Of a DNA stretch of 32,000 bases, positions 1 to 26,438 are shown one piece after another. The DNA is taken from NCBI RefSeq assembly GCF_000196355.1, contig NC_007614.1, forward strand, positions 300,001-332,000, in the 5' to 3' direction. A program made the position numbers and the translations under genes. The stretch's first letter is position 1, and each line of letters begins with the position of its first letter. The notes under the pieces are model-generated. The model saw only the letters and a list, made by a program, of their open reading frames with translations, had not been told where the DNA came from and made no database searches. This DNA is from Nitrosospira multiformis ATCC 25196 (GTDB lineage Bacteria; Pseudomonadota; Gammaproteobacteria; Burkholderiales; Nitrosomonadaceae).

Positions 1-167
1 GAGTAAACAGGAAGGGGTACCATTTCACCGCCGCTTGCAATTGTTTTCGGCTCTTTACTCAGGAGGACGTCATTAAGCTGAACGCAACCCGACCGGCTTT
101 GCACCGATTTGTCGACATATCGGGTTTATCCTGGTTAAAAGTAGGCTAATTATCTGAATCTCCCGTT

Positions 168-1526
168 TTGAACACACTTCCAGATCCAGAAAGTAACATT
201 GAGGGCATCCATCGCTTTCGACGCCGCCACAGAATTGCCGCTCCCTTGTTTCAGCTCCTCGATTCGCATGTTTTCCTGCCGGCGTGTTTCATACTTTTCG
301 TGGCATTGCGCGTAGCCCTGATTTTCTTTGTGCCCGTTGAGATGACTTCCGATGCAAGCTGGTACTTCAACAGAGCGGTTGGCATAGCGAGCGGCGGCGG
401 CTATTCGGAAGCGGGGTATCCGACAGCCTATTGGCCGGTTGGCTATCCCGGCTTTCTTGGTATCCTTTTCTATCTTTTCGGTCGGGATCAATTGGTAGGG
501 CAGATAGCTAATTTGGTTATGGCAGCCCTCAGTTTTTTTCTGCAACTGGAGCTGACACGAAGAATTTTCCGGAGCGAAGCCGCTGCCCGCTTGGGCGTCC
601 TCCTGCTTACCCTATATCCGAATCATGTAGCTTATACGTCTTTTATCTTAACCGAGGTTTACTTTACCTTTTTACTGCTTCTTGGCGTATACCTCTACAT
701 CACAAGGAGCCGATGGTTATGGATATGGGTTTGCGGCATTGTCTTCGGGCTGGCCGCGCTGACCAAACCGCAAGCAGTGTTCTTGCCTGGTCTGCTGGTG
801 CTTTTTCACGTATTCAGCGCCGAGAGAAAGGATAGGCTGAGGCAGCACCTCATCAAGGGATTTGCAATCTATCTTGCTATGGCTATGGTGCTGGTCCCCT
901 GGGCGGTGCGGAACACGATGATTTTCGGGGAGCTCGTCCTGATTTCCACTAACGGAGGGGCAACGCTCCTGACCGGAAATCATCCCACAGCCAGCGGAGG
1001 CTATGAGGAAAACGATCCGCTGGTGGCCCAGCGCAATTTCTCGGTTCAGGATCAGGTGGAATCTGACCGGCGCGCAAAGAAGCTGGCAACCGATTGGATA
1101 AGGGAAAACCCCGTGCGGTTTGTAGAGCTTATCCCTCTGAAGATATGGCATCTGTGGTCCAGAAATGGCGAAGCGGAGTGGGCCTATCAGGCGGGGTACC
1201 GGTACTATGAGCAGTATAGCGGCGCGTTCCGAACCATGAGGTGGATAAATCAGATCTTTTATGCTCTGCTGCTTGTGGGCTCGTTCGCGGCAGCTTTCCT
1301 GTTGATAAGGCATCCCGATAAAGTCGCTTGGCCGTGGGTGCTCGTGGGATACTGCCTGATGATTTACCTGACCTTGATATCGGTGGTCTTTTCCGGGCAA
1401 CCCAGGTTTCATTTTCCGGCCATGCCATGGGCCATCATGTATGCAGCGTGGGCAGCCGTGATGATCACGGTGAATCAGACCCGGGAACGGTATGACGCCT
1501 ACGTCTCCAGAACATCGGATTTCTAG
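168..1526 (+). CDS. Polytopic membrane glycosyltransferase, GT-C fold (GT39/PMT_2, ArnT-like)
   Basis: 452-aa ORF with many hydrophobic segments. The early loop SDASWYFNRAVGIASGGGYSEAGYPTAYWPVGYPGF resembles the acidic/aromatic first periplasmic loop of ArnT/PMT-type enzymes. Start uncertain: TTG at 168 or in-frame TTG at 246, and no clear SD. Confidence 0.55.
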   Translation: MNTLPDPESNIEGIHRFRRRHRIAAPLFQLLDSHVFLPACFILFVALRVALIFFVPVEMTSDASWYFNRAVGIASGGGYSEAGYPTAYWPVGYPGFLGILFYLFGRDQLVGQIANLVMAALSFFLQLELTRRIFRSEAAARLGVLLLTLYPNHVAYTSFILTEVYFTFLLLLGVYLYITRSRWLWIWVCGIVFGLAALTKPQAVFLPGLLVLFHVFSAERKDRLRQHLIKGFAIYLAMAMVLVPWAVRNTMIFGELVLISTNGGATLLTGNHPTASGGYEENDPLVAQRNFSVQDQVESDRRAKKLATDWIRENPVRFVELIPLKIWHLWSRNGEAEWAYQAGYRYYEQYSGAFRTMRWINQIFYALLLVGSFAAAFLLIRHPDKVAWPWVLVGYCLMIYLTLISVVFSGQPRFHFPAMPWAIMYAAWAAVMITVNQTRERYDAYVSRTSDF

Positions 1527-1732
1527 AGCTGCAACCGTTTCCAGACGAACAGGCACGTGCTTGACGGATGCGCTCCGTCCGGTAAAGAGGCGGATAATTC
1601 CGATCTTTCCAGGTCTTCCCATTGCAATACGTCTTCACCTGGAAAAGTAAATTAAATCATCTCCACTTGAAGCTGTAATTAAGTAGAATTTGACCCGGGG
1701 CACCAGAAGATGAAGGAATCGGATCTGATCAT

Positions 1733-2683
1733 ATGCCATTGGAAATCAGCATTGTCTCCACCATGTACCGGTCGCGGCCGTTTCTTGACCGGTTCCTTGC
1801 CGAATCCCTGCAAGCCTTGTCTGCGATCAAGTGTGACCATTTTGAGATATTGCTCGTCAATGATGGCTCGCCGGATGAGTCCCTGGCTTACGCGCTCGAA
1901 CGCCGGAGAGACATCCCGCAACTCGTGGTGGTTGATCTTGCGCGGAACTTTGGGCATCACGCTGCTATACAGGCTGGATTACGGCATGCACGGGGAAATC
2001 TCGTTTTTCTCATCGACTGCGACCTGGAGGTGTCGCCGCTGGTGCTGGCAGAGTTTTATTCCAAACTACGCGAGACCAAATCCGACGTCGTTTTTGGCTA
2101 TCAGGACGTACGCAAAGGCGGGCGGTTCGAACAAATCAGCGGCGGTCTGTTCTGGAAGGGATTCAACCTGCTCAGCGATGTAAAGATTCCTGAAAACATT
2201 CTTACGGAACGGATCATGACGCGCCGTTACGTGGAAGCGCTACTGCAGATGGGCGACCGGAATCTTTTTCTCGGTGGTATGATGAGCTGGACAGGTTTTC
2301 AGCAGATCGGCCTGCCTGTCGTCAAGAAACAGCGTGAAGGCAGAAGCACATATACTCTCCTGCGACGTATCGGATTGATGATCAATGCAGTAAGTTCATT
2401 CTCCGCCCAGCCTCTGATCTGGCTGTTCAACATAGGCGTAGTGATTACCCTGCTGAGTTTCTCATTTGCATTCTATCTTGTATTGCGAAAGCTACTGTTT
2501 GACGACACCCTCATGGGTTTCACTTCAGTAATGACCATGATGATGCTCAGCCTCGGTATTCTCACCACGGCAATGGGCCTTGTTGGTATCTACCTGGGGA
2601 AGGTGTTCAATCAGGTGCAGAACCGTCCCAATTATATCGTGAGAAATATTTTTACCGCTGATGATCAACCTGCAACCGATTGA
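1733..2683 (+). CDS. GT2 polyprenyl-phosphate sugar transferase (ArnC/GtrB/Dpm1-like)
   Basis: N-terminal GT-A motifs ISIVSTMYRSRPFL, LLVNDGSPDES, ARNFGHHAA, FLIDCDLE. Two C-terminal hydrophobic helices (LIWLFNIGVVITLLSFSFAFYLVL; VMTMMMLSLGILTTAMGLVGIYLG), typical of the ArnC/GtrB architecture. Confidence 0.75.
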   Translation: MPLEISIVSTMYRSRPFLDRFLAESLQALSAIKCDHFEILLVNDGSPDESLAYALERRRDIPQLVVVDLARNFGHHAAIQAGLRHARGNLVFLIDCDLEVSPLVLAEFYSKLRETKSDVVFGYQDVRKGGRFEQISGGLFWKGFNLLSDVKIPENILTERIMTRRYVEALLQMGDRNLFLGGMMSWTGFQQIGLPVVKKQREGRSTYTLLRRIGLMINAVSSFSAQPLIWLFNIGVVITLLSFSFAFYLVLRKLLFDDTLMGFTSVMTMMMLSLGILTTAMGLVGIYLGKVFNQVQNRPNYIVRNIFTADDQPATD

Positions 2684-2780
2684 CAGGACAGTAACGCGGC
2701 GTCCTTCTGATTTAGAATGAAGAGCAAGGGATAATTAAAAAGCTCGTGCTCCATTTCTGCTTAAATAAAGGAAGATATTC

Positions 2781-3497
2781 ATGAGCCTGGAAAATGAGCA
2801 GGATCCAACCGCATATGATCGCACTTATGTCCTGGATAACCGGCTAACCCTACAGTGGTATCCCCAAAGAGTCGTTGCGATGGCGCAAACAGGCAGCATG
2901 TTGGAACTGGGCTTGGGGCATGGTTACTCCACCGAATATTTTGCAAAGACTTTTCAGCGCTACCAAGTGATTGAAGGCTCCCAGGAGATGATTGACCGTT
3001 TCAGAGAACACTTCGCAATCGAGGGCGTTGATATCGCGCAGGGGTATTTCGAGGATTTCGAGACTGACGAACGCTTTGATGCGATTGGCATGGGTTTTGT
3101 TCTGGAGCATGTGGACAATCCGGCTGCGATTATACGACGCTATGCGCAGTTCCTTTCTCCAGGCGGATCCATTTATATTGCCGTCCCGAACGCTGAATCC
3201 CTTCACCGGAGGCTGGGGCATGCTGCCGGCCTGCTTCCCGACATGTATGCTTTAAGTTCAGCCGATCTCGAATTCGGCCATAAGCGTTATTTCTCTCTGG
3301 AATCGCTGGTTGAAATGGTAGAGGGTGAGGGATTGGAGATACGCAAGGTTGAAGGCCTCTTGCTCAAGCCGATCACGACGCAACAGATACTCGATTTGAA
3401 TCTCAGCGAAGCAATCTTGCAGGCCATGCTCAAAGTAGGCGTTGATTATCCCGAGCTATGCAACTCTTTACTGATCCAGGCGAGCAAGCTCCGCTAG
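2781..3497 (+). CDS. Class I SAM-dependent methyltransferase
   Basis: Motif I MLELGLGHG, acidic loop VIEGS, post-I region FDAIGMGFVLEHV, GGSIYIAVPN. AAGGAAG SD-like sequence upstream of the ATG. Confidence 0.75.
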   Translation: MSLENEQDPTAYDRTYVLDNRLTLQWYPQRVVAMAQTGSMLELGLGHGYSTEYFAKTFQRYQVIEGSQEMIDRFREHFAIEGVDIAQGYFEDFETDERFDAIGMGFVLEHVDNPAAIIRRYAQFLSPGGSIYIAVPNAESLHRRLGHAAGLLPDMYALSSADLEFGHKRYFSLESLVEMVEGEGLEIRKVEGLLLKPITTQQILDLNLSEAILQAMLKVGVDYPELCNSLLIQASKLR

Positions 3498-3548
3498 CAC
3501 AGGCGTCCAGCGCCATCATAAAAACCTGAACTGGCTGCGTAACAGGAA

Positions 3549-3974
3549 ATGCAATTTTCAATGCAGGCGTTCGCTCTTCGCTTCCACCATTTTGGTCTGG
3601 CCAGCAGACGGCCGGAGCAGACGCTTAAGTTCCTCAAGGGGTTGGGCCATGAAGTGGCTAGGCAGGTCTACGACCCGCTGCAAAACGTGAATCTCTGGCT
3701 GTGCCCCCATTCTTCCATGCCTACTGTGGAGTTGGTCGCGCCTGCGGAGGGGCAGGGTCCCCTGGATGCAATCCTCACCCAAGCGAGCGAAAGCATTTAC
3801 CATCTCTGTTATGAAACCGAAAATCTCAAAGCCAGTCTTGAAGCCTTGAAGGCAGGTGGATTCCGCGTAATTTGCGTATCACCTCCAAAACCTGCAATCC
3901 TCTTCGATGACAGACGGGTCAGCTTCTATATGATTAAGGATTTTGGCATAATCGAATTGCTGGAATCCCGTTGA
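3549..3974 (+). CDS. VOC-fold protein (glyoxalase / methylmalonyl-CoA epimerase-like)
   Basis: 141 aa with the paired beta-alpha-beta-beta-beta signature FHHFGLA ... VELVAP ... YHLCYE ... GIIELLE, typical of MCE/glyoxalase I-like proteins. AGGAA precedes the ATG. Confidence 0.6.
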   Translation: MQFSMQAFALRFHHFGLASRRPEQTLKFLKGLGHEVARQVYDPLQNVNLWLCPHSSMPTVELVAPAEGQGPLDAILTQASESIYHLCYETENLKASLEALKAGGFRVICVSPPKPAILFDDRRVSFYMIKDFGIIELLESR

Positions 3975-3989
3975 CGATATCGGAGAAAA

Positions 3990-5768
3990 GTGTTTACAGC
4001 AGTTTCCTCATTCCCCGGGGATATTCCCCCGACCCTGTCGGATCTTATCAGTACCTCCGATACCATGGATGCCGCAATGTCCTCTACGGCTCCCGCATAT
4101 CGCTTCGGTTTCTTACGCAACGTAACGCTGGAAGGAATTGAGCCTTATCTGCGCTACCACATGTTGAGGATGGGACTGCGGCCTGAGCTGATCTTTGGAG
4201 GTTATGGATCCATCCGTCAGGATCTGATATTACCCGACTCACCCTTGGTCAAATATTGTCCAGATCTTCTAGTAACGGCGTTTATGCTTGAGGAATTGGA
4301 TCCGCATTACGGTCTCCCCGGGTGGAACGCATCCCATTGCCGGGAGGAGTTGAGTACTATTTTTGACGCCTTGGCGGCCAGCGACGCCCCCACCATCAGC
4401 CTCAATACGTTCATCGTTCCCTTTCGCTCGGAGACTGGCACACTCATCGCGGCTCAGGACATTGCGAGCGAGGTCATCAGACTTAATGATTTTGTCCGGA
4501 CCTTTGTCCGTGAGCACAGCCCGCGTTTCTGTATAATGGACTGGGACCGGCTTGCCCACCGTATTGGCGAGGCCGAGGCCATGGACTACCGGTACTGGTA
4601 TATTTCCAAGGCCCCATTCAAACGATCCTTTCTCGATGCCCTGGCGCGGGAATTAACGAAAGTTGTGCTTGCCCTCAAGGGGCATACCAAGAAATGCCTG
4701 GTCCTGGATTGTGATAATACGCTTTGGGGCGGCGTTGTCGGAGAGGATGGCATTGAAGGTATCCATCTGGATGGTCATGATTATCCAGGGCGGGCGTATT
4801 ACGATTTTCAGAAGACTGTCCTCCAATTGGCCGAACGTGGCGTATTAATAACGCTTTGTTCGAAGAACAACGAACAGGACGTGCTCGATGTCCTCGACAA
4901 GCATCCCTGGAGCCTGCTCAAGCGCAACCACCTGTCCGGCTTCCGGATCAACTGGGACGACAAGGCTGCCAACTTGGTCGAGTTGGCAAAGGAGCTGAAT
5001 CTCGGTCTCGATGCTTTTGTATTCGTGGATGACAATCGGCGAGAGCTGGAATTAATACGACAGGTACTTCCTCAAGTGACAACCTTGCAAGTGCCGGACA
5101 GGCTCTATGAATACCCGGCATTGCTACAGCGAGATGGACTGTTCGATACGTTGATAACCAGCCAAGAGGATAAACTGCGAACCAGCCTTTATCAGACCGA
5201 AGCGCAGCGCAAAGCCGAACGAAATCAGCATCCGGATTTGGAGAGCTATCTTTTATCGTTGCAATTGGTGGTGAATATTCAAGTTGCAACCGACCGGGAG
5301 GCAATGCGGGTTGTACAGCTGACCCAGAAAACGAATCAGTTCAATTTAACGACCCGGCGCTATTCCGACCACGATATTGCACGGTTTCGCTCATCCAAGG
5401 ACGCCTGTGTCTATACCTTATCCGCCAGCGACCGTTTTGGCTCTCTTGGATTGGTAGGCGTATTTATAGTCCAACGCCGCCAAGAGACCGCCGTGGTCGA
5501 TTCCCTTTTGATGAGTTGCAGAGCGCTAGGCCGCCGCCTTGAGATAGCCTTTGTTCTGGAGTGCATGCGGCGTGTTGTAGCGGATTGGGGAATCCTCGCC
5601 TGGGAAGCAGAATACCTGTCCACAGCAAAGAACAGTCAAGTAGCGGATTTCTGGAGTACCCTTGGTTTTGCTCTGCTGGAACAAGCGGAAGGATACCGGC
5701 GCTATCGTTTGCAGGCCGCCATGCCAGAGATCGATCCACCGAGCTTTATTCATATTGAAAGAGAGTAG
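3990..5768 (+). CDS. FkbH-like HAD-IIIC phosphatase/acyl-loading protein
   Basis: HAD motif I CLVLDCDNTLWGG, motif II LCSKNN, motif IV FVFVDDN. C-terminal GNAT-like region VVQLTQKTNQFNLTTRRY ... LMSCRALGRRLE, typical of FkbH-family proteins. GTG start with GGAG 6 nt upstream; alternative ATGs at 4065 and 4074. Confidence 0.75.
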   Translation: MFTAVSSFPGDIPPTLSDLISTSDTMDAAMSSTAPAYRFGFLRNVTLEGIEPYLRYHMLRMGLRPELIFGGYGSIRQDLILPDSPLVKYCPDLLVTAFMLEELDPHYGLPGWNASHCREELSTIFDALAASDAPTISLNTFIVPFRSETGTLIAAQDIASEVIRLNDFVRTFVREHSPRFCIMDWDRLAHRIGEAEAMDYRYWYISKAPFKRSFLDALARELTKVVLALKGHTKKCLVLDCDNTLWGGVVGEDGIEGIHLDGHDYPGRAYYDFQKTVLQLAERGVLITLCSKNNEQDVLDVLDKHPWSLLKRNHLSGFRINWDDKAANLVELAKELNLGLDAFVFVDDNRRELELIRQVLPQVTTLQVPDRLYEYPALLQRDGLFDTLITSQEDKLRTSLYQTEAQRKAERNQHPDLESYLLSLQLVVNIQVATDREAMRVVQLTQKTNQFNLTTRRYSDHDIARFRSSKDACVYTLSASDRFGSLGLVGVFIVQRRQETAVVDSLLMSCRALGRRLEIAFVLECMRRVVADWGILAWEAEYLSTAKNSQVADFWSTLGFALLEQAEGYRRYRLQAAMPEIDPPSFIHIERE

Positions 5769-5776
5769 GCATTGAT

Positions 5777-6013
5777 ATGTCTGATATAGAGAATCGCACC
5801 CGTGACGTTATGGCGAAAGTCCTGCAAATCGCACCGCAAGATATCTCTCCGGACATTTCACGTAAGAATCTTCCCGCGTGGGACTCACTCAAGCACATGA
5901 ATCTGATACTGGCCTTGGAGGAGGAATTCGGCATCGAGTTCAGTGACAAGGAAATAGCCGATCTAAACAGCCTGCACCTTTTAGTGGACGCTTTGCGGAC
6001 CAAGCATTCATGA
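5777..6013 (+). CDS. Acyl carrier protein
   Basis: 78 aa with the phosphopantetheine attachment motif WDSLKHMNLILALEEEFG (DSL Ser). Lies immediately downstream of the FkbH-like gene. Confidence 0.8.
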   Translation: MSDIENRTRDVMAKVLQIAPQDISPDISRKNLPAWDSLKHMNLILALEEEFGIEFSDKEIADLNSLHLLVDALRTKHS

Positions 6014-6690
6014 ATGGTCAGTCCGATAGGCCTTTAGTCATCTTCGGCGTGGGAGAACTGGCCCAGCTGGCCTGCTATTACTTTACCCATGATAGCCCCC
6101 GCCGCGTCGCTGCTTTTACCGTAGACCGCACCCATTTCCGGGAAAATCAATGCATGGGGCTACCGGTGCTTGCCTTTGATGAGGTAGATACGCGCTATGC
6201 GCCCGAGGAATACGATATGTTTGTGGCCTTGGGCTATACCCGACTAAATCGGGCCAGAGCCGAAAAATGCGTGGAAGCCAAATCCCGTGGCTACCGGCTG
6301 GCGACATATGTCAGCAGTCGAAGCGTGACTTGGCCCGATCTGATCGTCGGCGAGAACTGTTTCATCATGGAGGGAAACGTAATTCAGCCCTTCGTGCGAA
6401 TAGGCAACAATGTCATCATCTGGTGCGGCAGTCTTGTCAGTCATCACGTCGAAATTGACGACCATTGCTTCATCGCTGCTCACGCAGTCATCTCGGGTCA
6501 TGTAAAGATAGGTGCTCACAGCTTCATCGGTGTAAACGCAACCCTACGCGACAAGATAACTCTGGCGGAGCGCACTCTGCTCGGTGCGGGTGCTCTGGTC
6601 ACCGCCAGTACTGACGAGAATACCGCGTACCTCACTGCACCCAGCCAGGAAGCTGGCGTACCCAGCCATCGGCTGCAATCCTTGCTCTAG
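6010..6690 (+). CDS. Left-handed beta-helix sugar N-acyltransferase (NeuD/PglD/VioB family)
   Basis: N-terminal Rossmann-like LVIFGVGELAQ followed by hexapeptide repeats IGNNVIIWCGSLVSHHVEIDDHCFIAAHAVISGHVKIGAHSFIGVNATL. ATGA start/stop overlap with the ACP gene. Confidence 0.75.
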   Translation: MNGQSDRPLVIFGVGELAQLACYYFTHDSPRRVAAFTVDRTHFRENQCMGLPVLAFDEVDTRYAPEEYDMFVALGYTRLNRARAEKCVEAKSRGYRLATYVSSRSVTWPDLIVGENCFIMEGNVIQPFVRIGNNVIIWCGSLVSHHVEIDDHCFIAAHAVISGHVKIGAHSFIGVNATLRDKITLAERTLLGAGALVTASTDENTAYLTAPSQEAGVPSHRLQSLL

Positions 6691-6702
6691 CAGAGCCATA
6701 TC

Positions 6703-7431
6703 ATGCAAGCCAGGCACAATAAAGTTGCCATCCTGCAATCCAATTACATCCCCTGGAAAGGCTACTTCGATCTCATTCACGACGTCGACCTGTTCATTTT
6801 CTACGACGACGTGCAGTACACCTTGAGAGACTGGCGCAACCGAAACAGGATCAAAACTCCCCGCGGGGTGGACTGGCTAACGGTGCCTACCAACGGTACC
6901 CGGCAGCATTTGATCTGCGAAGTCGAGTTTACCGACCCAAGGTGGCAATCGAAACATTGGGAAACATTGCGGCACAACTATGGAAAGACGCCTTATTTCG
7001 AACGCTACCGGCCGTTTTTCGAGGATGTCTATCTGGGCAGGCGATGGGACCATCTCTCTCAGCTGAATCAATATCTCATCGAACAAATTTCGCATCAATT
7101 CCTGGGCATTACCACGATTTTTGCAGATTCGCGCCGTTATAGAGCCACAGGGGAAAAACAGGCGCGCATAGTCGATCTGCTAACCAAGGCGGCTGCCTCG
7201 CTTTACGTTTCGGGGCCAGCTGCCAGGAGCTATATCGATGAAGCGCATTTTTCCCGGATCGGCATCGAACTGGTGTGGAAGGATTATGGCGGCTACCCGG
7301 AATATCCGCAATCTCACCCTCCCTTTGAACATGCCGTTACCATATTGGATTTACTGTTTCATACCGGACCGGAGGCGCCCTATTACATATGGGGATGGCG
7401 CGCCAACGTCGACTCAAACAACGATAAATGA
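6703..7431 (+). CDS. WbqC-family protein (function unknown, glycan-locus associated)
   Basis: N-terminus VAILQSNYIPWKGYFDLIHDVDLFIFYDDVQYTLRDWRNRNRIKT matches the WbqC-like family signature as I recall it. Confidence 0.7.
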   Translation: MQARHNKVAILQSNYIPWKGYFDLIHDVDLFIFYDDVQYTLRDWRNRNRIKTPRGVDWLTVPTNGTRQHLICEVEFTDPRWQSKHWETLRHNYGKTPYFERYRPFFEDVYLGRRWDHLSQLNQYLIEQISHQFLGITTIFADSRRYRATGEKQARIVDLLTKAAASLYVSGPAARSYIDEAHFSRIGIELVWKDYGGYPEYPQSHPPFEHAVTILDLLFHTGPEAPYYIWGWRANVDSNNDK

Positions 7432-7793
7432 TAAGTTATTTTTATATTTTTCTTACGATTGTCTTTACCGTTTACGGACAAATCGTGCTTAAGTGGCAGG
7501 TCATCGGTGCCGGTGAATTTCCAGCGAGCGCGTCGGACAAGATATTGTTTTTGGCCCGGCTCGTGCTCAATCCCTGGGTCATCAGCGGTTTCCTGGCTGC
7601 ATTCCTTGCATCGCTGACCTGGATGGCAGCAATGACTAAGCTGGAGCTGAGCCATGGTTACCCTTTCATGAGCCTCAATTTCGTATTTGTAATTGTTTTG
7701 AGCAATCTGCTGTTCCATGAAGCGATCACGATGCCGAAAATGCTCGGTCTGGGTTTGATTATCCTCGGCATCGCAGTCGGGAGCCGGGGTTGA
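7428..7793 (+). CDS. Small four-helix DMT/SMR-like membrane protein (ArnE/ArnF-like candidate lipid-linked sugar flippase)
   Basis: 121 aa with four hydrophobic segments. ATGA overlap with the WbqC gene and TTGA overlap with the next gene. Size and topology resemble EamA-half/SMR proteins such as ArnE/ArnF. Confidence 0.6.
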   Translation: MISYFYIFLTIVFTVYGQIVLKWQVIGAGEFPASASDKILFLARLVLNPWVISGFLAAFLASLTWMAAMTKLELSHGYPFMSLNFVFVIVLSNLLFHEAITMPKMLGLGLIILGIAVGSRG

Positions 7794-8668
7794 AAATCTG
7801 CTTGTCATGCAGCGCCAGATTTACCGATTCCGGGTGGCGATGTCCCGTTTGCTTCTCGACCCCCGAGCAGGTGGATGGGTTTCTCAGTTTTGCGCCAGCA
7901 CAGGCGAAATCTGATGAAGGATTTCAGCCGCATCACTTCAATGAGCTGGCGCAAGCAGAAGCGGAGCACTTCTGGTTTCGTTCGCGCAATCGACTCATCA
8001 TATGGGCGTTACATCGTTTTTTCCCGGATGCCAGGAAATTTCTTGAAATCGGTTGCGGAACAGGATTTGTGCTGTCGGGCATAGCACAGGACAATCCCCG
8101 TCTCGAAATCAGTGGAAGCGAGATTCATTCGGCGGGCTTGAGTCACGCGGCAGATCGCGCAAGGAACGCCACACTGTTTCAAATGGATGCCCGCGATATT
8201 CCTTTTGATAGCGAATTCGATGTCATCGGTGCTTTTGATGTGCTTGAACACATTGAGGAAGACTCGCAGGTATTGTTGCAAATGTTTCGCGCCATCTCAC
8301 CCGGGGGAGGTATGATTGTCACCGTGCCCCAACACCGTTTCCTGTGGAGTCAGCAGGATGAGCATGCGTGTCATGTTCGACGCTATGAAGCTCAGGAACT
8401 GCAGGATAAGGTGGAAAAGGCGGGATTTCGGGTGGAAAAGGCGACATCGTTTGTATCGCTGCTGTTACCTCTGATGTTCATATCGCGATTGTCCAAACGC
8501 AAACCTGTCGAGAACTATGACCCGACACAGGAGTTCAGGATCAAAAAATGGGTAAACACGATTCTCGAGGGAATCCTTGATCTGGAACGTCTGATGATTC
8601 GCGGGCGAGTCTCATTTCCGATGGGCGGGTCGCGATTGCTGATTGCCCGAAAACCAGCAGGGGCGTAA
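7790..8668 (+). CDS. Class I SAM-dependent methyltransferase with N-terminal zinc ribbon
   Basis: N-terminal CLSC...RCPVC (CxxC-x11-CxxC). Motif I FLEIGCGTGF, then DVIGAFDVLEHI and GGGMIVTVP. TTG start overlaps the upstream stop. Confidence 0.7.
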   Translation: MKICLSCSARFTDSGWRCPVCFSTPEQVDGFLSFAPAQAKSDEGFQPHHFNELAQAEAEHFWFRSRNRLIIWALHRFFPDARKFLEIGCGTGFVLSGIAQDNPRLEISGSEIHSAGLSHAADRARNATLFQMDARDIPFDSEFDVIGAFDVLEHIEEDSQVLLQMFRAISPGGGMIVTVPQHRFLWSQQDEHACHVRRYEAQELQDKVEKAGFRVEKATSFVSLLLPLMFISRLSKRKPVENYDPTQEFRIKKWVNTILEGILDLERLMIRGRVSFPMGGSRLLIARKPAGA

Positions 8669-8675
8669 TCACCAT

Positions 8676-9800
8676 ATGCAAATACCGTTCAACAAACCCT
8701 ATATGACCGGGAAGGAGCTATGGTATGTCAGCCAGGCTCATGCGAACGGACATCTGGCCGGCGACGGGGTTTTCACGAAGAAATGCAATGCGTGGCTGGA
8801 ACGCCGGATCGGGTGTAAAAAAGCGTTGCTGACGCATTCCTGCACGGCTGCGCTGGAGATGGCGGCCATTCTTGCGCAGATCGGACCCGGCGATGAGGTC
8901 ATCATGCCTTCCTATACTTTCGTCTCCACCGCCAATGCGTTCGCATTGAGAGGGGGCGTGCCTGTATTCGTGGACATCCGGCCTGATACATTCAATATCG
9001 ACGAAACCCTGATCGAGGCTGCCATCACCCCGAAAACCAAAGCGATCGTTGCTGTTCACTACGCGGGAGTGGGATGCGAGATGGATGCCATCATGTCCAT
9101 CGCCGAACGGTATGGTTTGTTCGTGATCGAGGATGCAGCCCAGGGTCTTATGTCAACCTACAAGGGCAGACCGCTGGGCAGTATCGGCCATCTCGCAGCG
9201 CTGAGCTTCCACGAGACCAAGAACATCATTTCCGGGGAAGGGGGAGCTCTGCTGGTGAACGACGCACGCTTTGCGGAGCAAGCGGAAATAATCAGGGAAA
9301 AAGGTACCAATCGCAGTCAGTTTTTTCGTGGGCAGGTGGATAAGTATACCTGGGTGGATTTCGGCTCATCCTATCTTCCCAGTGAACTCATTGCTGCCTT
9401 TCTCTGGGCTCAGATAGAGGAGGCGGATGCAATCACGCAACGCCGTCTCGATATCTGGGACGTCTACCACGCTAATTTCGAACTTTTGGAAAAACAGGGG
9501 AAGATCCATCGTCCGACCATTCCTTCTGATTGCATGCACAACGCCCATATGTACTATCTCCTGTTGCCCGACCTGGACAGGCGCACCGCTTTCATCAACG
9601 CTCTCCGGCAGAAGGGAATAGGAACAGTTTTTCATTACGTTCCTCTTGACAGCTCTCCCATGGGGGAAAAGTGGGGCCGCAAGTCAGGCGCATTAACGCG
9701 GACACGAGAGTTGAGCGACCGGCTGGTCAGGCTGCCGCTATGGCTGGGCCTGGAGGAATACCAGAACGAAGTCATTCAGCATGTCGCGGCCGAGTTATGA
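8676..9800 (+). CDS. wecE: dTDP-4-amino-4,6-dideoxy-D-galactose (Fuc4N) transaminase, WecE/RffA-like (DegT/DnrJ/EryC1 family)
   Basis: Long stretches match my recollection of E. coli WecE: MQIPFNKPY, SCTAALEMAA, GDEVIMPSYTFVSTANAF, VDIRPDTFNIDETLIEAAITPKTKAIV, SFHETKN (PLP Lys), IIREKGTNRSQFFRGQVDKYTW. ATG at 8676 preferred over the in-frame TTG at 8643. Confidence 0.85.
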   Translation: MQIPFNKPYMTGKELWYVSQAHANGHLAGDGVFTKKCNAWLERRIGCKKALLTHSCTAALEMAAILAQIGPGDEVIMPSYTFVSTANAFALRGGVPVFVDIRPDTFNIDETLIEAAITPKTKAIVAVHYAGVGCEMDAIMSIAERYGLFVIEDAAQGLMSTYKGRPLGSIGHLAALSFHETKNIISGEGGALLVNDARFAEQAEIIREKGTNRSQFFRGQVDKYTWVDFGSSYLPSELIAAFLWAQIEEADAITQRRLDIWDVYHANFELLEKQGKIHRPTIPSDCMHNAHMYYLLLPDLDRRTAFINALRQKGIGTVFHYVPLDSSPMGEKWGRKSGALTRTRELSDRLVRLPLWLGLEEYQNEVIQHVAAEL

Positions 9801-9930
9801 AAAAGTCACGTTCCAGTTTCCATATTCTTTGCATAAGTCATCTGGCGCGGCTTCCTATATGTTCCTGACTGGAGTTTCGCGTAAATCTTCCGTTAAGCCA
9901 TGCTGGACCTGACCGCACTGCAAAAAATTG

Positions 9931-11148
9931 ATGCGAATTCTGCATATCCTTGATCACTCCATTCCCCTGCACAGCGGCTACACTTTCCGAACGCTTTCGA
10001 TTCTGAATGAACAACGGAACCTGGGGTGGGAAACCTTTCATCTGACCGGATCGAAGCAGGAAAATTGCAGTGTGCTGGAAGAGTGCGTGGAAGGATGGCA
10101 TTTTTATCGTACCCCAGCCCCGTCAGGACTGAGGGCACGGCTGCCCGTCTTGAATCAGCTGGCTGTCATGGAGGCTCTTACCCATCGCCTGACTGAGGTG
10201 GTCAAGATTGTCGAACCGGATATCCTGCACGCGCATTCTCCAGTCCTGAACGCTTTGCCTGCCTTGCGCGTGGGGCGGAGATCGGGTATTCCTGTCGTCT
10301 ACGAAGTCCGGGCATTCTGGGAAGATGCGGCCGTAGATCACGGCACTCATCGCGAATGGGGCGCACGATATCGTCTCACCCGTGAGCTGGAGAGTTACGC
10401 GTTAAGGCATGTTGATGCAGTAACCACGATTTGTGAGGGGCTGCGCGGCGACATCCTCAAGCGGGGTATTCCGTCAGAAAAGGTAACTGTCATTCCCAAT
10501 GCGGTCAATCTCGAAACTTTCAGGATGAGCGAGCGCGGGGATTTGCAACTTGCAAACGCACTCGGGATGGAGGGCAAGGTGTTGCTCGGCTTCATCGGCT
10601 CGTTTTACGCGTATGAAGGATTGACTGTACTGCTCAACGCACTGCCCCGTATGTTAGCGGCAAATCCCGACATCCGCATTCTTCTGGTGGGAGGAGGGCC
10701 TCAGGAAGACGAATTAAAATCTCTTACAGCCCGGAGGGGTCTGCAAGGCAAGGTTATTTTCACGGGCCGCGTTCCCCATGATCAGGTTCGGCGCTATTAC
10801 AATCTGATCGATATTCTCGTTTATCCGAGATTGCCCATGCGCCTTACAGACCTGGTCACGCCCCTCAAGCCGCTGGAGGCCATGGCGCAAGGAAGGCTCG
10901 TTGCCGCTTCAGATGTAGGCGGACATCTCGAGCTCATCCAGGATGGAAAAACCGGAGTGCTTTTCAAGGCTGGCGATTCCGACGCCTTGGCAGCCCGGAT
11001 ATTGAATCTCATATCCAGCACCGATACCTGGGATACCCTTCGGGCCGGGGCGCGCGATTTTGTCGAAACCCAGCGCAACTGGGCTGGCAGCGTGGCCGGC
11101 TATAAGGAGATCTATCGCACTCTCCTTTCAAGGAAAGCATCGTCATGA
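9931..11148 (+). CDS. GT4 glycosyltransferase (resembles exosortase/PEP-CTERM-locus-associated subfamily)
   Basis: MRILHILDHSIPLHSGYTFR N-terminus. GT-B C-terminal motif PLKPLEAMAQGRLVAASDVGGHLELIQDGKTGVLF (E-x7-E). ATG at 9931 sits just after the TTG at 9928. Confidence 0.8.
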   Translation: MRILHILDHSIPLHSGYTFRTLSILNEQRNLGWETFHLTGSKQENCSVLEECVEGWHFYRTPAPSGLRARLPVLNQLAVMEALTHRLTEVVKIVEPDILHAHSPVLNALPALRVGRRSGIPVVYEVRAFWEDAAVDHGTHREWGARYRLTRELESYALRHVDAVTTICEGLRGDILKRGIPSEKVTVIPNAVNLETFRMSERGDLQLANALGMEGKVLLGFIGSFYAYEGLTVLLNALPRMLAANPDIRILLVGGGPQEDELKSLTARRGLQGKVIFTGRVPHDQVRRYYNLIDILVYPRLPMRLTDLVTPLKPLEAMAQGRLVAASDVGGHLELIQDGKTGVLFKAGDSDALAARILNLISSTDTWDTLRAGARDFVETQRNWAGSVAGYKEIYRTLLSRKASS

Positions 11149-12257
11149 AAGCTGGCTTGCGCATTGGATTGGTCGGGCCTCTGCCTCCTCCTTCAGGGGG
11201 AATGGCCAACCAGACGTTGCAGTTGGCAGGACTCCTGCGAGAAGAGCATGTTGAGGTGGAGCTGATTCAGGTCAATCGTCCCTACCGGCCTGGCTGGATT
11301 GGAAGATTCAAGGGGATCAGGGCGGGCTTCCGCCTGCTGTCCTATGTCAGCCAACTGTGGCTTTCCGCCGGCAGAGTTCAATTATTTCACGTGATGGCCA
11401 ATTCCGGCTGGTCGTGGCACTTGTTTGCTGCTCCCGCCATCTGGATTGCACGGCTCAGGGGTAAGCCGGTGATTATCAATTATCGGGGAGGCGAGGCGGA
11501 CTCCTTCTTTGATAAAGCCTTTTCGTGGGTAAAGCCGAGCTTGTCAAGAGCAAATGCAATTATCGTTCCTTCCGGGTTTCTGGAAGGGGTTTTCGGCAAA
11601 CGCGGCTTTTCGGCCAGTATCGTTCCCAATATCATCGACCTGAGCCGCTTCGGAGCAGGAATGCGGTCCGATACCTCCACGGTGGAAGCCGGACCTGACT
11701 CTCCCCATATCATCGTCACCCGCAATCTGGAGCCGATTTACGACAATGAGACTGCACTGCGCGCCTTTCACATCGTAAGACGCTCCTTCCCCGCTGCGAA
11801 GCTCACCTTGGCCGGATCCGGCCCGGAGCGGCACACGTTGGAGCAACTTGCCTTCGCATTGGGCATAGGGGGGGCCGTGACATTCACCGGGCGCGTGGAC
11901 AACGAAGGCATGGCTGCAATCTATCGCAGCGCGAGTGTGATGCTCAATCCGAGCCTCGCCGATAATATGCCTATATCGATACTTGAAGCTTTGGCAAGCG
12001 GCGTCCCGGTGGTGAGTACGAACGTGGGGGGTGTCCCCTATCTCGTTGAGCATGAAAAGAACGCCTTGCTCGTACCCGCGCGCGACCCCCAGGCGATGGC
12101 CAATGCAGTTCTGCGGCTGCTCAATGATGCAGCCAGGACCCGGCGTCTGATCGAGGCGGGTATGGAATGCGTGCAGCGCTACACCTGGCCGAACGTGCGC
12201 GTCCCCCTGTTCCGTGTCTATGAGCAGGTTCTTGCCGCACCAGACAGATCCTGTTGA
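11145..12257 (+). CDS. GT4 glycosyltransferase
   Basis: IGLVGPLPPPSGGMANQ N-terminus. C-terminal SILEALASGVPVVSTNVGGVPYLVEHEKNALLV (E-x7-E). ATGA overlap with the upstream GT4. Confidence 0.8.
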   Translation: MKAGLRIGLVGPLPPPSGGMANQTLQLAGLLREEHVEVELIQVNRPYRPGWIGRFKGIRAGFRLLSYVSQLWLSAGRVQLFHVMANSGWSWHLFAAPAIWIARLRGKPVIINYRGGEADSFFDKAFSWVKPSLSRANAIIVPSGFLEGVFGKRGFSASIVPNIIDLSRFGAGMRSDTSTVEAGPDSPHIIVTRNLEPIYDNETALRAFHIVRRSFPAAKLTLAGSGPERHTLEQLAFALGIGGAVTFTGRVDNEGMAAIYRSASVMLNPSLADNMPISILEALASGVPVVSTNVGGVPYLVEHEKNALLVPARDPQAMANAVLRLLNDAARTRRLIEAGMECVQRYTWPNVRVPLFRVYEQVLAAPDRSC

Positions 12258-15316: not shown

Positions 15317-17167
15317 TTATCTCCAATAGACCAGCAGATCTCCGATTTCCTTGGAATTTGCAAAGCCATTCCGGGTCAAGGCGTTCTGCACCCTGGGATC
15401 AGCGGCGGTGTTTTTAGCAATAACGACGGAACGAAGATTTTCATACTCGAGCAGAGTCTGAAATGCGGGTAAGCAATCCGGTTCATCGCCATTCACAAAT
15501 TCGGATGCGCAGATTCGCTGGTCGATTTCTGTACCAAGACCCCGTTCCCTAAACCATACCCTCTCTGCGTCAGTGAAAACACGCATTTGCGGATAGTTTC
15601 CGCTTAGCATGGTAATAATGCCGTTGACAGGCAGTGGGGCGAGCATGGGTCCCGGCGGTACAACTGCAATCACGTCTGACGCCGCCTTTTCGAACCGTGC
15701 AGGCAGTTTATAACGTGGCCATCCGAATTCGGTTCTCAAGTACAGGACAGAGGTGGTAAAGGGGACGAAATGAGCGATGAAAAGCAGGAAAACTGTGCCC
15801 GAGATGAAAGCAAGCCGGACTGTTCTGGAATATTTTTCCACGTATTCATACAGTCCGGCTCCGGTCAGACCCAACAGGAGTGGCAATGGATAGACATAAA
15901 ACACTCGCCAGTAAATGTTGGGGGTCGTCAGGTATTTGATAATGAAGGGGGAAACAATCGGATTCAGGAATAGGACAAGGGCGGCCCCAATCCACGCCAG
16001 CAGGAAGCGGCGGGTCTTGCCCGAAGTCATCAATAGTCCCAATACCGTTGCGCCAAGTAAGGCAAGCGGTGTCGCCGGGCCTGATTTTTCAAAAAAGAAC
16101 CCCGCATGCCCCAGAAAAGTGACAGGAAAATCTTCATTGACGGGACTGTTTGCACTTAAATCGGAGTGGAAGTTTAAAAACATCAGCAAGGTATAGAGGA
16201 CCAGATAACTCAAGCTGAATGCATACGTTATCGCGTTTTTCAGGAATTGTTTATAGCTCCCTTCGTTTGCCGCAGCACAGGCGATAACAACCGCTATGGT
16301 CAGGACTGGAAGAAGCGCCATGCTGGAACTCGTCGCGCCGACCATGGCGGTGGTAACCGCAAAAGTCAGCATCCAGTCGGATAGGGAGTAAGTTCGAAAG
16401 AAATTGATAGTGGCGGCCGCAAACAGGGGTATTCCTGTCGAAAGGAAAAAAACCTTTCCGATAAAAACATTGGGAAATGACCAGGTACCCGGTGTTCGAG
16501 GCGTTTCCCCGAGAAGAAGAATGATGGCAACCGCGAACAGAGCGCCCACCGCCGCCGGCTTTGGATCAACAAATTGAGCGACAAGATAAAACAGGGTTAA
16601 TGGAATGAGAAAGCCGAGCAGAGCGGGGGAAACCAGGAAAAAAGCCGACAGGTAAGGAATGTTCAGGAAGTATGCTAATACCCCGAGAGTGTATTCATAC
16701 GGAAGGGAAGTGGCGCCGAAATAGGAGGTGATGGGCTCGCTCCCTGCCTCCATAAAGTGAATTGCAAAACCCATCGGTAAATCCGGGTTTTGGAGATAGT
16801 AAACAGCGTTGGGAACGTAATAAAAAAGATCGAAGCTGACTTTTCCGGCCCCCGTGTGAAAGAAGCTGGAGATAAAAGCGCCGCCGAGACCCGTGAGGAT
16901 CAGAAACGATAAAGTTCCGAGATCCTGCAGAACCCTCTGCCCGTACTGGCGCCGAAAAAAATTCCATGCCAGCAGGGACATTCCGAGCGTTAGGAAAAGA
17001 CCCAGCCTCGCATATATCTTGAAAGTGATACCGGAAACCTGGGCAATATGGGTCAGGATCGTCATACTGGCGAGTATGGCGACCAGCCAGAACAGAACGG
17101 ATTTCACGACCAGGAAACTGAGGTACGATTCGGGGTTGTTTTTAGTGAAATTCAATATCATCTCCAC
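15317..17167 (-). CDS. Large polytopic membrane protein with C-terminal soluble domain (function unknown; candidate polymerase or GT-C-like enzyme)
   Basis: 616-aa ORF with roughly 13-15 hydrophobic segments by eye over ~480 aa, then a ~130-aa hydrophilic tail (RTEFGWPRYKLP...LLVYWR). I recognise no catalytic motif. Confidence 0.6.
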   Translation of the reverse strand: MEMILNFTKNNPESYLSFLVVKSVLFWLVAILASMTILTHIAQVSGITFKIYARLGLFLTLGMSLLAWNFFRRQYGQRVLQDLGTLSFLILTGLGGAFISSFFHTGAGKVSFDLFYYVPNAVYYLQNPDLPMGFAIHFMEAGSEPITSYFGATSLPYEYTLGVLAYFLNIPYLSAFFLVSPALLGFLIPLTLFYLVAQFVDPKPAAVGALFAVAIILLLGETPRTPGTWSFPNVFIGKVFFLSTGIPLFAAATINFFRTYSLSDWMLTFAVTTAMVGATSSSMALLPVLTIAVVIACAAANEGSYKQFLKNAITYAFSLSYLVLYTLLMFLNFHSDLSANSPVNEDFPVTFLGHAGFFFEKSGPATPLALLGATVLGLLMTSGKTRRFLLAWIGAALVLFLNPIVSPFIIKYLTTPNIYWRVFYVYPLPLLLGLTGAGLYEYVEKYSRTVRLAFISGTVFLLFIAHFVPFTTSVLYLRTEFGWPRYKLPARFEKAASDVIAVVPPGPMLAPLPVNGIITMLSGNYPQMRVFTDAERVWFRERGLGTEIDQRICASEFVNGDEPDCLPAFQTLLEYENLRSVVIAKNTAADPRVQNALTRNGFANSKEIGDLLVYWR

Positions 17168-17267
17168 AAAGTGGTAACCAACCGGCGTCCTCCGATTGAT
17201 ATCTGCGCCTGCCTCATCAATCCATTTATTGCCGCATGGATTCCGGGATCACTCCGGATAGAGCCCG

Positions 17268-18161
17268 TCAGCTAACCCGCATGGTCAGCGAGCGCGCAAG
17301 GGTCTCATAAGTGGGGGTATGCCCCGAAGCGTAGCCGGATAAATAATACCGTGCAGGTTCAAAGTGGTTTTCGGCTGTGAAAGGTTCCAGAAACTTATTG
17401 GTAACCAGTTCTCTCCTGATAAAAAAAGCGTTTGCTCCGGTCAAGTTGCAACCTACAAGGCAATATCCCATTTTATTCAGATTTGTTTCGAGAAATTTCA
17501 AGGAGGCGCCGAAACAGTCGTCCCCCGTCCACATATGGGTTTCGGTGTAATCCATGCAAAACAGGACGGGCGGCGCGAACTTGGCGTTATATTCAATCAC
17601 GATCACCCGTGGGGTGATACAGGAGATGGCCTGAAGAACATGATAATCATTCCCATCGATGTCCACCGATAGCAGATCAATTTCGCGGTGTTTTACGTTC
17701 GTTGCAATGAGGTTATCAATATTTGCTTTCGTGATAAAAGACTCGACGACAGCCAATTTGCCGCTTCCTATGATTTCTGAAAAATGATTGCGTATGCTGG
17801 TTATCGAATCGGACGAGGCATCGATCCACAAACCTTGCCAGTCTTCAAAAAGGAGGGCAAGCGTATTGTTTTCAAGGCCATTTCCGATCCCGAATTCCAC
17901 AAAAACCTTATTGGTTGTACCAATTCTGTTGAATATTTCCCGAATGATGCCGTCTTCATCATTTTGCGAATATATTTTCCCCCCGAAAGGAATCAGGCTT
18001 TTTGGCTCCTTGTAACGCTCATTGCTTCGCAGACGATCGATCTCGGTGCGAATGGAAAGCTGACGGGCGCGGCTTGTTTCGACGCTGATGTCATCCAGGG
18101 AGAGAGTGAAGTGATGCATCAGTTTTTTCAGTTTCTCCAGCATTGTTTTTTTCTCTGTCAT
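17268..18161 (-). CDS. FkbM-like class I methyltransferase with N-terminal helical extension
   Basis: YSQNDEDGIIREIF, FVEFGIGNGLENNT, WQGLWIDAS and IDLLSVDIDGNDYHVL resemble the FkbM/Methyltransf_21 pattern. The first ~45 aa are charged and helical (EKLKKLMHHF...RLRSNERYKE). Confidence 0.55.
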   Translation of the reverse strand: MTEKKTMLEKLKKLMHHFTLSLDDISVETSRARQLSIRTEIDRLRSNERYKEPKSLIPFGGKIYSQNDEDGIIREIFNRIGTTNKVFVEFGIGNGLENNTLALLFEDWQGLWIDASSDSITSIRNHFSEIIGSGKLAVVESFITKANIDNLIATNVKHREIDLLSVDIDGNDYHVLQAISCITPRVIVIEYNAKFAPPVLFCMDYTETHMWTGDDCFGASLKFLETNLNKMGYCLVGCNLTGANAFFIRRELVTNKFLEPFTAENHFEPARYYLSGYASGHTPTYETLARSLTMRVS

Positions 18162-18200
18162 AAGAAATCGTGGTGAGAGGCAAGGGCCCCTCTCAGACCG

Positions 18201-19094: not shown

Positions 19095-19144
19095 TCTTTA
19101 GACCTCATCATCGATAAACCAGGTACTGGTTCGTTCATTGCAAT

Positions 19145-26288: not shown

Positions 26289-26438
26289 CGCCTGATCATA
26301 TAGGGATAGGGACTCCTGGTTTTTTCTTTATCCTCGAAGTTAATGCCGGCTTCCGCGCAACGGAAGGGAAGACCGGGAATTCCCTCTTCTTTGAGAAGTT
26401 CATATAAGTCAAGTTTCTTACGGCCATTTGCTCAATCT

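Follow-up and report, generated by a model that had tools for sequence, protein, structure and literature searches.

A widespread amino sugar cassette in the XrtA exopolysaccharide locus of Nitrosospira multiformis and its possible role in polyprenyl-phosphate-linked glycosylation

Gene content and setting

The distal part of the XrtA/PEP-CTERM exopolysaccharide locus of Nitrosospira multiformis ATCC 25196 houses a segment of eleven genes (168–9800) that is considered here for its part in the assembly and export of an N-acylated amino-dideoxyhexose. All positions are those of the window, i.e. the whole stretch of 32,000 nucleotides (nt) that was analysed (NC_007614.1, 300,001–332,000). The cassette in question, at 1733–9800, begins with the gene of a family 2 glycosyltransferase (GT2) and ends with that of a WecE-type aminotransferase; the gene of a glycosyltransferase with GT-C fold precedes it. 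An original prediction had read the entire segment as a three-component glycosylation module in the manner of the Arn and Gtr systems, carried on eleven tightly packed, co-directional genes with 4-nt overlaps. Open reading frame (ORF) and family scans bear out this organisation and the families named: 11 plus-strand ORFs, all intact, fill the segment, which additionally encodes an acyl carrier protein (ACP), an FkbH-type enzyme, a VOC protein and two methyltransferases (Table 1). The overlaps are present in the sequence (ATGA at 6010–6013, ATGA at 7428–7431 and TTGA at 7790–7793). The last one hinges on a TTG start, and the gene caller put the start of this methyltransferase gene 81 nt downstream. 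The long form is favoured because of its zinc-ribbon N-terminus and because the family alignment, which is RlmA-like, starts at residue 12.

That the cassette is embedded in an XrtA exopolysaccharide locus follows from the adjoining hallmark GT4 (TIGR04063), whose gene is separated from the WecE gene by a 127-nt gap. RmlA and RmlB had been said to lie outside the window, and indeed neither was found among the window ORFs scanned against family libraries. Promoter and terminator scans of 1–10200 gave nothing exceeding shuffled expectation.

Table 1. Genes of the segment and two further glycosyltransferase genes of the window, with family evidence (bit scores are followed by the model cutoff; aa, amino acids; TM, transmembrane segments; PLP, pyridoxal phosphate; SAM, S-adenosylmethionine; pLDDT, predicted local distance difference test)
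Feature	Position	Strand	Evidence
GT-C fold glycosyltransferase (PMT_2 / GT39-83-like), 452 aa	168..1526	+	PMT_2 43.5 bits vs 26.1, E 5e-11
GtrB/ArnC-type GT2, 316 aa, cassette anchor	1733..2683	+	Glycos_transf_2 E 1e-22; full-length GtrB/ArnC alignments
SAM-dependent methyltransferase (Methyltransf_23)	2781..3497	+	Pfam E 3.6e-18
VOC/Glyoxalase_4 protein	3549..3974	+	Pfam E 1.7e-22; TIGR03081 E 9e-8, under cutoff
FkbH-type enzyme with HAD-IIIC domain	3990..5768	+	TIGR01686 281 bits vs 146.65; HAD-IIIC 63 vs 35.75
Acyl carrier protein, 78 aa, DSL phosphopantetheine motif	5777..6013	+	ACP models E 3e-10, under equivalog cutoffs
NeuD/PglD/VioB-type left-handed beta-helix N-acyltransferase	6010..6690	+	TIGR03570 197 bits vs 160.8
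WbqC-family protein	6703..7431	+	Pfam WbqC E 1e-76
EamA/ArnF/ArnE-like protein, 121 aa, 4 TM	7428..7793	+	EamA 32.8 bits vs 28.2
SAM-dependent methyltransferase, N-terminal CxxC...CxxC zinc ribbon	7790..8668	+	Pfam Methyltransf_23/12/31/11
WecE-type dTDP-4-keto-6-deoxy-D-glucose 4-aminotransferase, PLP-dependent	8676..9800	+	NF008687 623 bits vs 375; TIGR02379 612 vs 434.85
XrtA/PEP-CTERM hallmark GT4 ('stp3')	9928..11148	+	TIGR04063 662 bits vs 442
DUF6077 GT-C fold protein, 616 aa	15317..17167	-	AlphaFold2 pLDDT 92.2 and Foldseek; homologues carry PF19554

The GT2 and the small membrane protein

Among solved structures, Synechocystis GtrB (5EKP) comes closest to the GT2, whose residues 3–309 align with GtrB positions 26–332 (E 7e-50). 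Residues 4–308 align with ArnC (9HWJ, E 1e-31), and three ArnC structures are matched at ~1e-31 to 4e-29, while full-length matches are obtained for PgfS (8e-46) and ArnC (5e-37). Its hydropathy profile displays two C-terminal hydrophobic segments at residues ~220–250 and ~260–290, and the DXD motif D95-C-D97 (in FLIDCDLE) is invariant in 10 homologues. The enzyme is hence predicted to be a polyprenyl-phosphate sugar synthase.

The 121-aa protein encoded further downstream contains four hydrophobic segments according to its hydropathy profile and shares 52% identity with its cassette counterpart in locus L008. It scores best with ArnF (3.7e-12) and ArnE (6.7e-9), and the drug-efflux SMR protein EbrB is a weaker match (E 1.8e-4). 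A role as the flippase for a lipid-linked sugar, encoded by a single gene, is therefore predicted. The original prediction had placed the GT2 with ArnC/GtrB-type enzymes with two C-terminal transmembrane helices and the small protein with ArnE/ArnF. Both placements hold, since GtrB and ArnC rather than soluble or processive GT2 families match best, and since ArnF and ArnE outscore the drug-efflux SMRs for a protein whose gene is also linked to the GT2 in other genomes (see below).

Amino sugar formation and N-acylation

The aminotransferase passes the equivalog cutoffs for WecE (Table 1), and its residues 2–362 match E. coli WecE (4PIW) with E 1.8e-146, in line with the close resemblance to WecE noted earlier. 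With its cassette counterpart in L008 it shares 73% identity; its ArnB score amounts to 198 bits against a cutoff of 631. The acyltransferase, likewise assigned correctly from the outset to the NeuD/PglD/VioB type, has PglD, PglB-ATD, PerB and VioB as relatives in the PDB. It is predicted to move an ACP-bound acyl group onto the 4-amino group of the sugar; acyl-ACP is preferred over acetyl-CoA as the donor solely because the ACP and FkbH genes adjoin.

Members of the FkbH family load a glycerate-derived unit from 1,3-bisphosphoglycerate onto an ACP. In the cassette, the ACP gene starts 9 nt past the FkbH stop codon, and the identical ACP gene in L001 has a PP-binding Pfam match. The VOC protein is methylmalonyl-CoA epimerase-like, its predicted substrate is the ACP-bound acyl group, and its gene is found together with FkbH in 5–6 loci. 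The methyltransferase encoded directly after the GT2 may modify either the acyl group or the sugar, and its type accompanies the FkbH/ACP/NeuD block in seven loci (L012, L013, L015, L023, L034, L052 and L053). Homologues of the zinc-ribbon methyltransferase hold the same cassette position in L007, L017, L021 and L022. The WbqC-family protein has many residues, aromatic and charged, that are invariant between the window and the WbqC genes of L005–L091, and no PDB relative was found for it by sequence or profile search.

Conservation of the cassette across genomes

The cassette was surveyed with one genome per species, which gave 80 loci, and partners were counted in the 46 loci, from four phyla, in which 8 kb or more flank the GT2 on either side. 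The most frequent partner is WbqC (40 of the 46 loci), followed by a WecE-like gene (38) and an EamA-like gene (32). The 80 loci span Nitrosospira, Accumulibacter, Massilia, Rubrivivax/Roseateles, Chromatiaceae, Competibacteraceae, Rhodanobacteraceae, Paludibacter and other Bacteroidota, as well as Ignavibacteria. The gene-neighbourhood test suggested with the original prediction came out in its favour as regards the GT2 and the small protein: GT2, EamA-like and WecE-type genes and N-acylating enzymes are syntenic in Beta- and Gammaproteobacteria, Bacteroidota and Ignavibacteria. The genes of GT2 homologues with 72–75% identity share one arrangement in Accumulibacter, in a Gallionellaceae genome and in two further assemblies (one of them Burkholderiaceae, L033): GT2, variable enzymes, WbqC, ATP-grasp, amidohydrolase, a 126–134-aa EamA protein, in some cases a methyltransferase, and a WecE-like enzyme. 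In three of the four, a PMT-type GT-C of 531–540 aa closes the arrangement.

The enzyme sets that would form the amide differ between loci. FkbH, ACP and NeuD, with or without the VOC protein and the methyltransferase, occur in 5–8 loci, ATP-grasp together with amidohydrolase in ~20 and a HAD/ATP-grasp fusion in ~17. Because these variable enzymes sit between the GT2 on one side and EamA and WecE on the other, the genes from GT2 to WecE appear to form one functional unit. In L005 and L007, moreover, an RmlA equivalog (491 bits, cutoff 360.65) adjoins the GT2. It would be hard to explain this pattern of conserved linkage if the GT2 and the small transporter did not handle the sugar made by WecE and the acylating enzymes. 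On balance, we therefore lean, by a modest degree, toward reading 1733–9800 as the local version of a widespread cassette that puts an N-acylated 4-amino-4,6-dideoxyhexose onto polyprenyl phosphate for use outside the cytoplasm, with the GT-C upstream of it belonging chiefly to a second system.

An improbable alternative is that the nucleotide sugar (dTDP-N-acyl-Fuc4N or -Qui4N; dTDP, deoxythymidine diphosphate) is consumed by the cytoplasmic GT4s of the XrtA locus, while the GT2 and the small protein represent an unrelated, Gtr-like glucosylation that happens to be encoded nearby. Two GT4 genes do lie directly downstream (9928–12257), the locus contains a Wzx flippase and a Wzy/ligase-like protein, E. 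coli WecE is established to supply a cytoplasmic transferase in the biosynthesis of enterobacterial common antigen (ECA), and a dedicated GT-C is absent from the cassette of this strain. However, GT2, WbqC, EamA and WecE co-occur across four phyla while the flanking GT4s change, and the variable acylation genes are located inside the span from GT2 to EamA/WecE, not outside. The TIGR04063 GT4 lies downstream of the cassette in 14 of the 80 loci, and the cassette also adjoins lipopolysaccharide (LPS) core genes where the XrtA GT4 is absent.

Two metagenome contigs (L096 9829–15006 and L097 8756–13935), whose GT-C is 88–91% identical to that of the window, keep genes for a GT2-GtrA fusion, the GT-C, EamA, WecE and the XrtA GT4. 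What has been lost begins at the 5' end of the GT2 and extends to the 3' end of WbqC. A minimal GT-C–EamA–WecE system was considered for these contigs and rejected, as nucleotide alignment identifies them as deletion derivatives: remnants align to window positions 1713–1853 and 7322–7402, with ~140 nt of the GT2 5' end kept and, in L097, ~80 nt of the WbqC 3' end. The cassette thus varies between closely related Nitrosospira strains and is, as judged from these genome comparisons, a surface-variation or decoration module.

The GT-C enzyme upstream of the cassette

The 452-aa protein had been proposed to be a GT-C enzyme, with a structural model and a search for the catalytic acidic residue as checks, and this is borne out. 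In addition to the PMT_2 match, its AlphaFold2 model (pLDDT 90.8) retrieves GT-C proteins as all of the top 35 Foldseek matches in the PDB, including AglB, ArnT (5F15), STT3 and Pmt4. S61 and D62, with which the first periplasmic loop helix begins, show no variation among 36 homologues. On longer contigs of the species, directly 5' of its gene lies that of a 373-aa DPM1-like GT2-GtrA fusion, the stop codon of which ends at window position 2, and this is preceded by the gene of a 509-aa PEP-CTERM protein (L002 5097–8270, left of window position 1). One possibility is that the PEP-CTERM gene, the fusion and the GT-C serve the periplasmic O-glycosylation of PEP-CTERM proteins. With the fusion counted, two GT2s of the polyprenyl-phosphate type flank one GT-C, which raises the question of the system to which the GT-C belongs.

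It could, in accordance with the original prediction, combine with the cassette GT2 and the 121-aa protein into a dedicated three-component system for the N-acyl amino-dideoxyhexose. The genes of the GT-C and the GT2 are co-directional neighbours with a 206-nt gap. In all four Nitrosospira loci that lack a GT-C after WecE and have upstream sequence (the window, L012, L013 and L022), a 452-aa-type GT-C is located directly 5' of the GT2, and relatives are found beside the cassette in several arrangements (L015, L016, L111, L126 and L148). Nevertheless, we regard such a dedicated system as unlikely. Wherever sequence suffices, the 452-aa-type GT-C beside a cassette is preceded by another GT2 of the polyprenyl-phosphate type, either the GT2-GtrA fusion or a second GtrB-like enzyme; only in L022 was none detected. 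More distant homologues with 42–45% identity (Zoogloea and another genome) occur as isolated GT2-GtrA/GT-C pairs amid housekeeping genes with no aminosugar genes nearby, and the pair is found without the cassette in L009 and L010 and in the metagenome loci L100, L102, L104, L107 and L142. That L019 and L024 carry both the cassette's own GT-C and the GT2-GtrA/GT-C pair speaks for two systems that are distinct. The deletion of most of the cassette in L096 and L097 has left the GT-C and the GT2-GtrA fusion in place.

Two stronger statements were rejected. A universal pairing of GT2-GtrA and GT-C is contradicted by its occurrence, under strict adjacency, in 7 of the 41 metagenome loci with enough upstream sequence, several others having a different GtrB-like GT2; the claim that the 452-aa GT-C has its own upstream GT2 is thus limited to loci neighbouring the cassette, except L022. 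Neither can the protein be regarded as an orthologue of the GT-C that follows WecE elsewhere, as BLASTP matches to cassette GT-Cs are weak (E 0.006–0.008) and profile comparison gives a superfamily-level likeness in the N-terminal half only. Taken together, the 452-aa GT-C is probably the partner of the GT2-GtrA fusion and not the dedicated GT-C of the cassette, for which it is still a candidate surrogate. From the proposed three-component module, the GT2, the 121-aa protein and some GT-C do belong together in many genomes; the particular GT-C of the window does not share in this.

Two loci of other Nitrosospira strains show further variation upstream of the cassette. L025 (4984–9775) encodes a GtrB-like GT2, a methyltransferase, GtrA as a stand-alone protein and a protein of 803 aa with 11 transmembrane segments. 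L020 (8814–9777) contains only fragments of a 452-aa-type GT-C, an apparent pseudogene.

Candidates for the final transfer

In 22 of the 80 loci, a GT-C of the PMT_2 cluster is encoded within the cassette or at its 3' end. These include six Nitrosospira/Nitrosovibrio genomes, in which a 565–600-aa PMT_2 protein follows WecE. Such a post-WecE GT-C is also absent in strains Nl7 and Nl18 and in L022 and L025. As the cassette of N. multiformis lacks its own GT-C, the last step may be borrowed from the 452-aa enzyme, from the DUF6077 protein encoded on the minus strand (Table 1) or from a gene elsewhere in the genome.

The DUF6077 protein had no match in the Pfam or NCBIfam scans and appears, from its structural model, to represent an unrecognised GT-C family: its top 11 Foldseek matches are all GT-C proteins (among them STT3, DPY19, PglB, AftA and Pmt4), and D113 is invariant among homologues. 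As the missing transferase it was demoted to a weak candidate, since a homologue adjoins the cassette in Dyella lutea (L091) only. In three of three other neighbourhoods, homologues are unlinked to the cassette and lie with a GT4 and FkbM methyltransferases or alone. In the window, the gene is part of a minus-strand block (15317–20185) of the order GT4, FkbM/RfbT-like methyltransferase, second FkbM-like protein, DUF6077 GT-C, which recurs in the related contig L095 (6366–11842) without the cassette. This block is probably a separate unit for methyl-sugar decoration.

Large polytopic proteins with no Pfam match are encoded beside the cassette in L075 (13751–15223), L087 (15501–17144), L045 (11661–13535, minus strand), L051 (7972–9564) and L090 (15633–18047). 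Their hosts are Paludibacter, Rhodanobacteraceae and some Burkholderiales, and some of the genes directly abut the cassette. In the Paludibacter group, a WSDEL motif is invariant and recalls the acidic loop-1 motif of GT-C enzymes, and the Paludibacter and Rhodanobacteraceae proteins gave no significant profile match to PMT_2-type GT-Cs. These proteins could be further unrecognised GT-C families.

The lack of a cassette GT-C could alternatively signify that the cassette is an evolutionary remnant in N. multiformis, and that the sugar has reached no acceptor since the GT-C was lost. This would agree with the presence of the post-WecE GT-C in six congeners, with the large deletions and short remnants in L096 and L097, and with the fragments of the other, 452-aa-type GT-C in L020. 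Yet, none of the 11 ORFs is disrupted, their packing is tight, with translational coupling, and the arrangement without GT-C is kept in Nl7 and Nl18 at 92–97% protein identity, which is unexpected for decaying genes. A remnant is hence a very improbable explanation.

Proposed pathway

If the cassette operates as favoured above, the WecE-type enzyme would first aminate dTDP-4-keto-6-deoxyglucose, which would be supplied by RmlA and RmlB encoded elsewhere. FkbH would place a glycerate-derived unit on the ACP, where tailoring by the VOC protein and/or a methyltransferase is possible, and the NeuD/PglD-type enzyme would then acylate the 4-amino group. Subsequently, the GtrB/ArnC-type GT2 could move the sugar to undecaprenyl phosphate, and the single EamA/ArnF-like protein with four transmembrane segments, presumably as a dimer, could flip the lipid-linked product. 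Finally, a GT-C would add the sugar to a periplasmic acceptor, most likely the XrtA-associated exopolysaccharide and conceivably LPS or PEP-CTERM proteins. The linkage and the families support the original idea that an N-acylated 4-amino-4,6-dideoxyhexose (there of the Fuc4N type) is attached to undecaprenyl phosphate and flipped, whereas the 452-aa GT-C does not qualify as its dedicated last step.

Several observations weigh against this pathway. Neither of the two central membrane-associated proteins reaches the equivalog cutoffs of its characterised relatives: the GT2 scores 157 bits with PgfS (cutoff 500) and 127.5 with ArnC (529), and therefore belongs to a distinct subfamily, and the 121-aa protein scores 46.7 bits with ArnF (99) and 35.9 with ArnE (92). 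The cassette has one flippase-type gene, in contrast to the heterodimeric Arn flippase pair. Characterised GtrB/ArnC enzymes take UDP-sugars, which makes the use of a dTDP donor by an enzyme of this type the least precedented of the proposed steps. WbqC, the most constant partner of the GT2, belongs to an uncharacterised family. The post-WecE GT-C is missing from the cassette of this strain, in which the XrtA GT4 follows WecE instead, and N. briensis (L023) has no cassette GT-C within 10 kb. The deletion of most of the cassette in the close relatives L096 and L097 indicates that it is dispensable, and it could be inactive. Lastly, all support is genomic: from the family memberships, gene order and cross-phylum synteny observed, the chemical steps, the donor nucleotide of the GT2 and the acceptor are proposed.

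Comparison with known systems

The closest published analogue, as judged from gene descriptions, is region 3 in the wxc gene cluster of Xanthomonas campestris (wxcK–wxcO), which is responsible for the Fuc3NAc side branch of a rhamnan O-antigen (PMC4878081, PMC12573098). It encodes the DegT-family aminotransferase WxcK, the glycosyltransferase WxcL, the acetyltransferase/isomerase WxcM, the small membrane protein WxcN and the larger membrane protein WxcO (PMC12573098). In wxcK and wxcN mutants, the FucNAc branches are gone and the backbone stays, as expected for an addition after polymerisation (PMC4878081). Both systems thus combine a pathway to a dTDP-derived amino-6-deoxyhexose with a glycosyltransferase and with small and larger membrane proteins. 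In contrast to the 4-amino sugar predicted here, wxc forms a 3-amino sugar with a plain N-acetyl group, FkbH/ACP and WbqC do not figure in its gene list, and a lipid-linked intermediate is not reported in PMC4878081 or PMC12573098. The original prediction had ventured that the combination of an Arn-type route with this sugar class may be new. This needs to be qualified: the WecE/WbqC/GT2/EamA cassette is not described in the literature searched on WbqC, FkbH-linked sugar N-acylation and PEP-CTERM glycosylation, but wxc region 3 is a published and genetically supported analogue.

With the Arn system (ArnB, ArnC, ArnD, ArnE/F and ArnT), which decorates lipid A with 4-amino-4-deoxyarabinose (Ara4N), the cassette shares, in its predicted logic, a DegT-type 4-aminotransferase, N-acylation before transfer, an undecaprenyl-phosphate GT2, a flippase with four transmembrane segments and a GT-C. 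The aminotransferase is a WecE equivalog and not ArnB, the GT2 has a closer relative in GtrB than in ArnC, one flippase gene replaces two, and ArnA and ArnD have no counterpart. Instead of the transient formyl group of Arn, the N-acyl group would be built by FkbH and ACP, and the setting is an exopolysaccharide locus rather than lipid A modification.

Three-component periplasmic glycosylation is further known from the Gtr systems (GtrA/GtrB/Gtr*), Klebsiella Gml and the pentofuranose systems, which carry glucose (Glc), galactose (Gal), N-acetylglucosamine (GlcNAc) or pentofuranoses derived from UDP-sugars or phosphoribosyl pyrophosphate (PMC11127046). The Gtr systems resemble the cassette in the logic of a polyprenyl-phosphate sugar synthase, a small flippase and a GT-C. 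Unlike Gtr, the cassette has an embedded multi-enzyme pathway for dTDP-amino sugar formation and acylation, and its predicted flippase is EamA/ArnEF-like instead of GtrA-like.

The likeness to the 4-acetamido-4,6-dideoxygalactose (Fuc4NAc) branch of E. coli ECA biosynthesis (WecE, WecD and WecF) lies in the aminotransferase, which passes the WecE equivalog model. In ECA biosynthesis, the GNAT-family enzyme WecD N-acetylates the sugar, and WecF adds it in the cytoplasm to the lipid II linked to undecaprenyl pyrophosphate. Hence, ECA differs from the cassette in having no GT2/flippase/GT-C route.

Implications

Extended beyond N. multiformis, these observations could be explained by a cross-phylum family of three-component systems, each built from a GtrB-like GT2, one EamA-type flippase and one of diverse GT-Cs, that handle dTDP-4-amino-4,6-dideoxyhexoses with swappable N-acylation sets and obligatory WbqC. 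The N-acyl group would be an FkbH/ACP-derived glyceroyl here and consist of ATP-grasp-ligated groups elsewhere, and the sugar would be added to glycans outside the cytoplasm or, for XrtA loci, to PEP-CTERM surface proteins. We put this proposal forward tentatively, with slightly less than even confidence in its parts taken jointly. If true, a lipid-monophosphate-linked route would for the first time be known for this sugar class, and WbqC, an uncharacterised family for which a testable role is thereby offered, would gain its first functional context. Three-component periplasmic glycosylation would then no longer be confined to simple hexoses, Ara4N and pentofuranoses but would also cover dTDP-derived amino-dideoxyhexoses with elaborate N-acyl groups, and GtrB/ArnC-type enzymes would be able to accept dTDP-amino-dideoxyhexose donors.

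The proposal, ordinary in its logic and genomic in its basis, would also explain a gene block that hundreds of environmental bacteria share (Beta- and Gammaproteobacteria, Bacteroidota and Ignavibacteria). Among the carriers are ammonia oxidisers and wastewater organisms (Accumulibacter and Zoogloea-type floc formers), whose exopolymers govern aggregation.

Neighbouring genes

On the 3' side of the cassette, the XrtA GT4 is followed by the second GT4, a PaaK/CapK-like ligase and a MOP flippase. Further downstream lie the minus-strand block, a sulfotransferase, an adenylyl-sulfate kinase, an exosortase-A-associated O-antigen-ligase-like protein (TIGR03097) and a polysaccharide deacetylase. The presence of the Sulfotransfer_3 protein (21581–22672, minus strand) and the adenylyl-sulfate kinase (23093–23770, plus strand) within the same locus suggests that the exopolysaccharide is sulfated. 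A 188-aa protein with DUF3565 and DUF1971 (a TehB-like N-terminal domain) is encoded on the plus strand (26343–26909), past the exopolysaccharide locus and ahead of the atp operon, which begins ~27.5 kb into the window.

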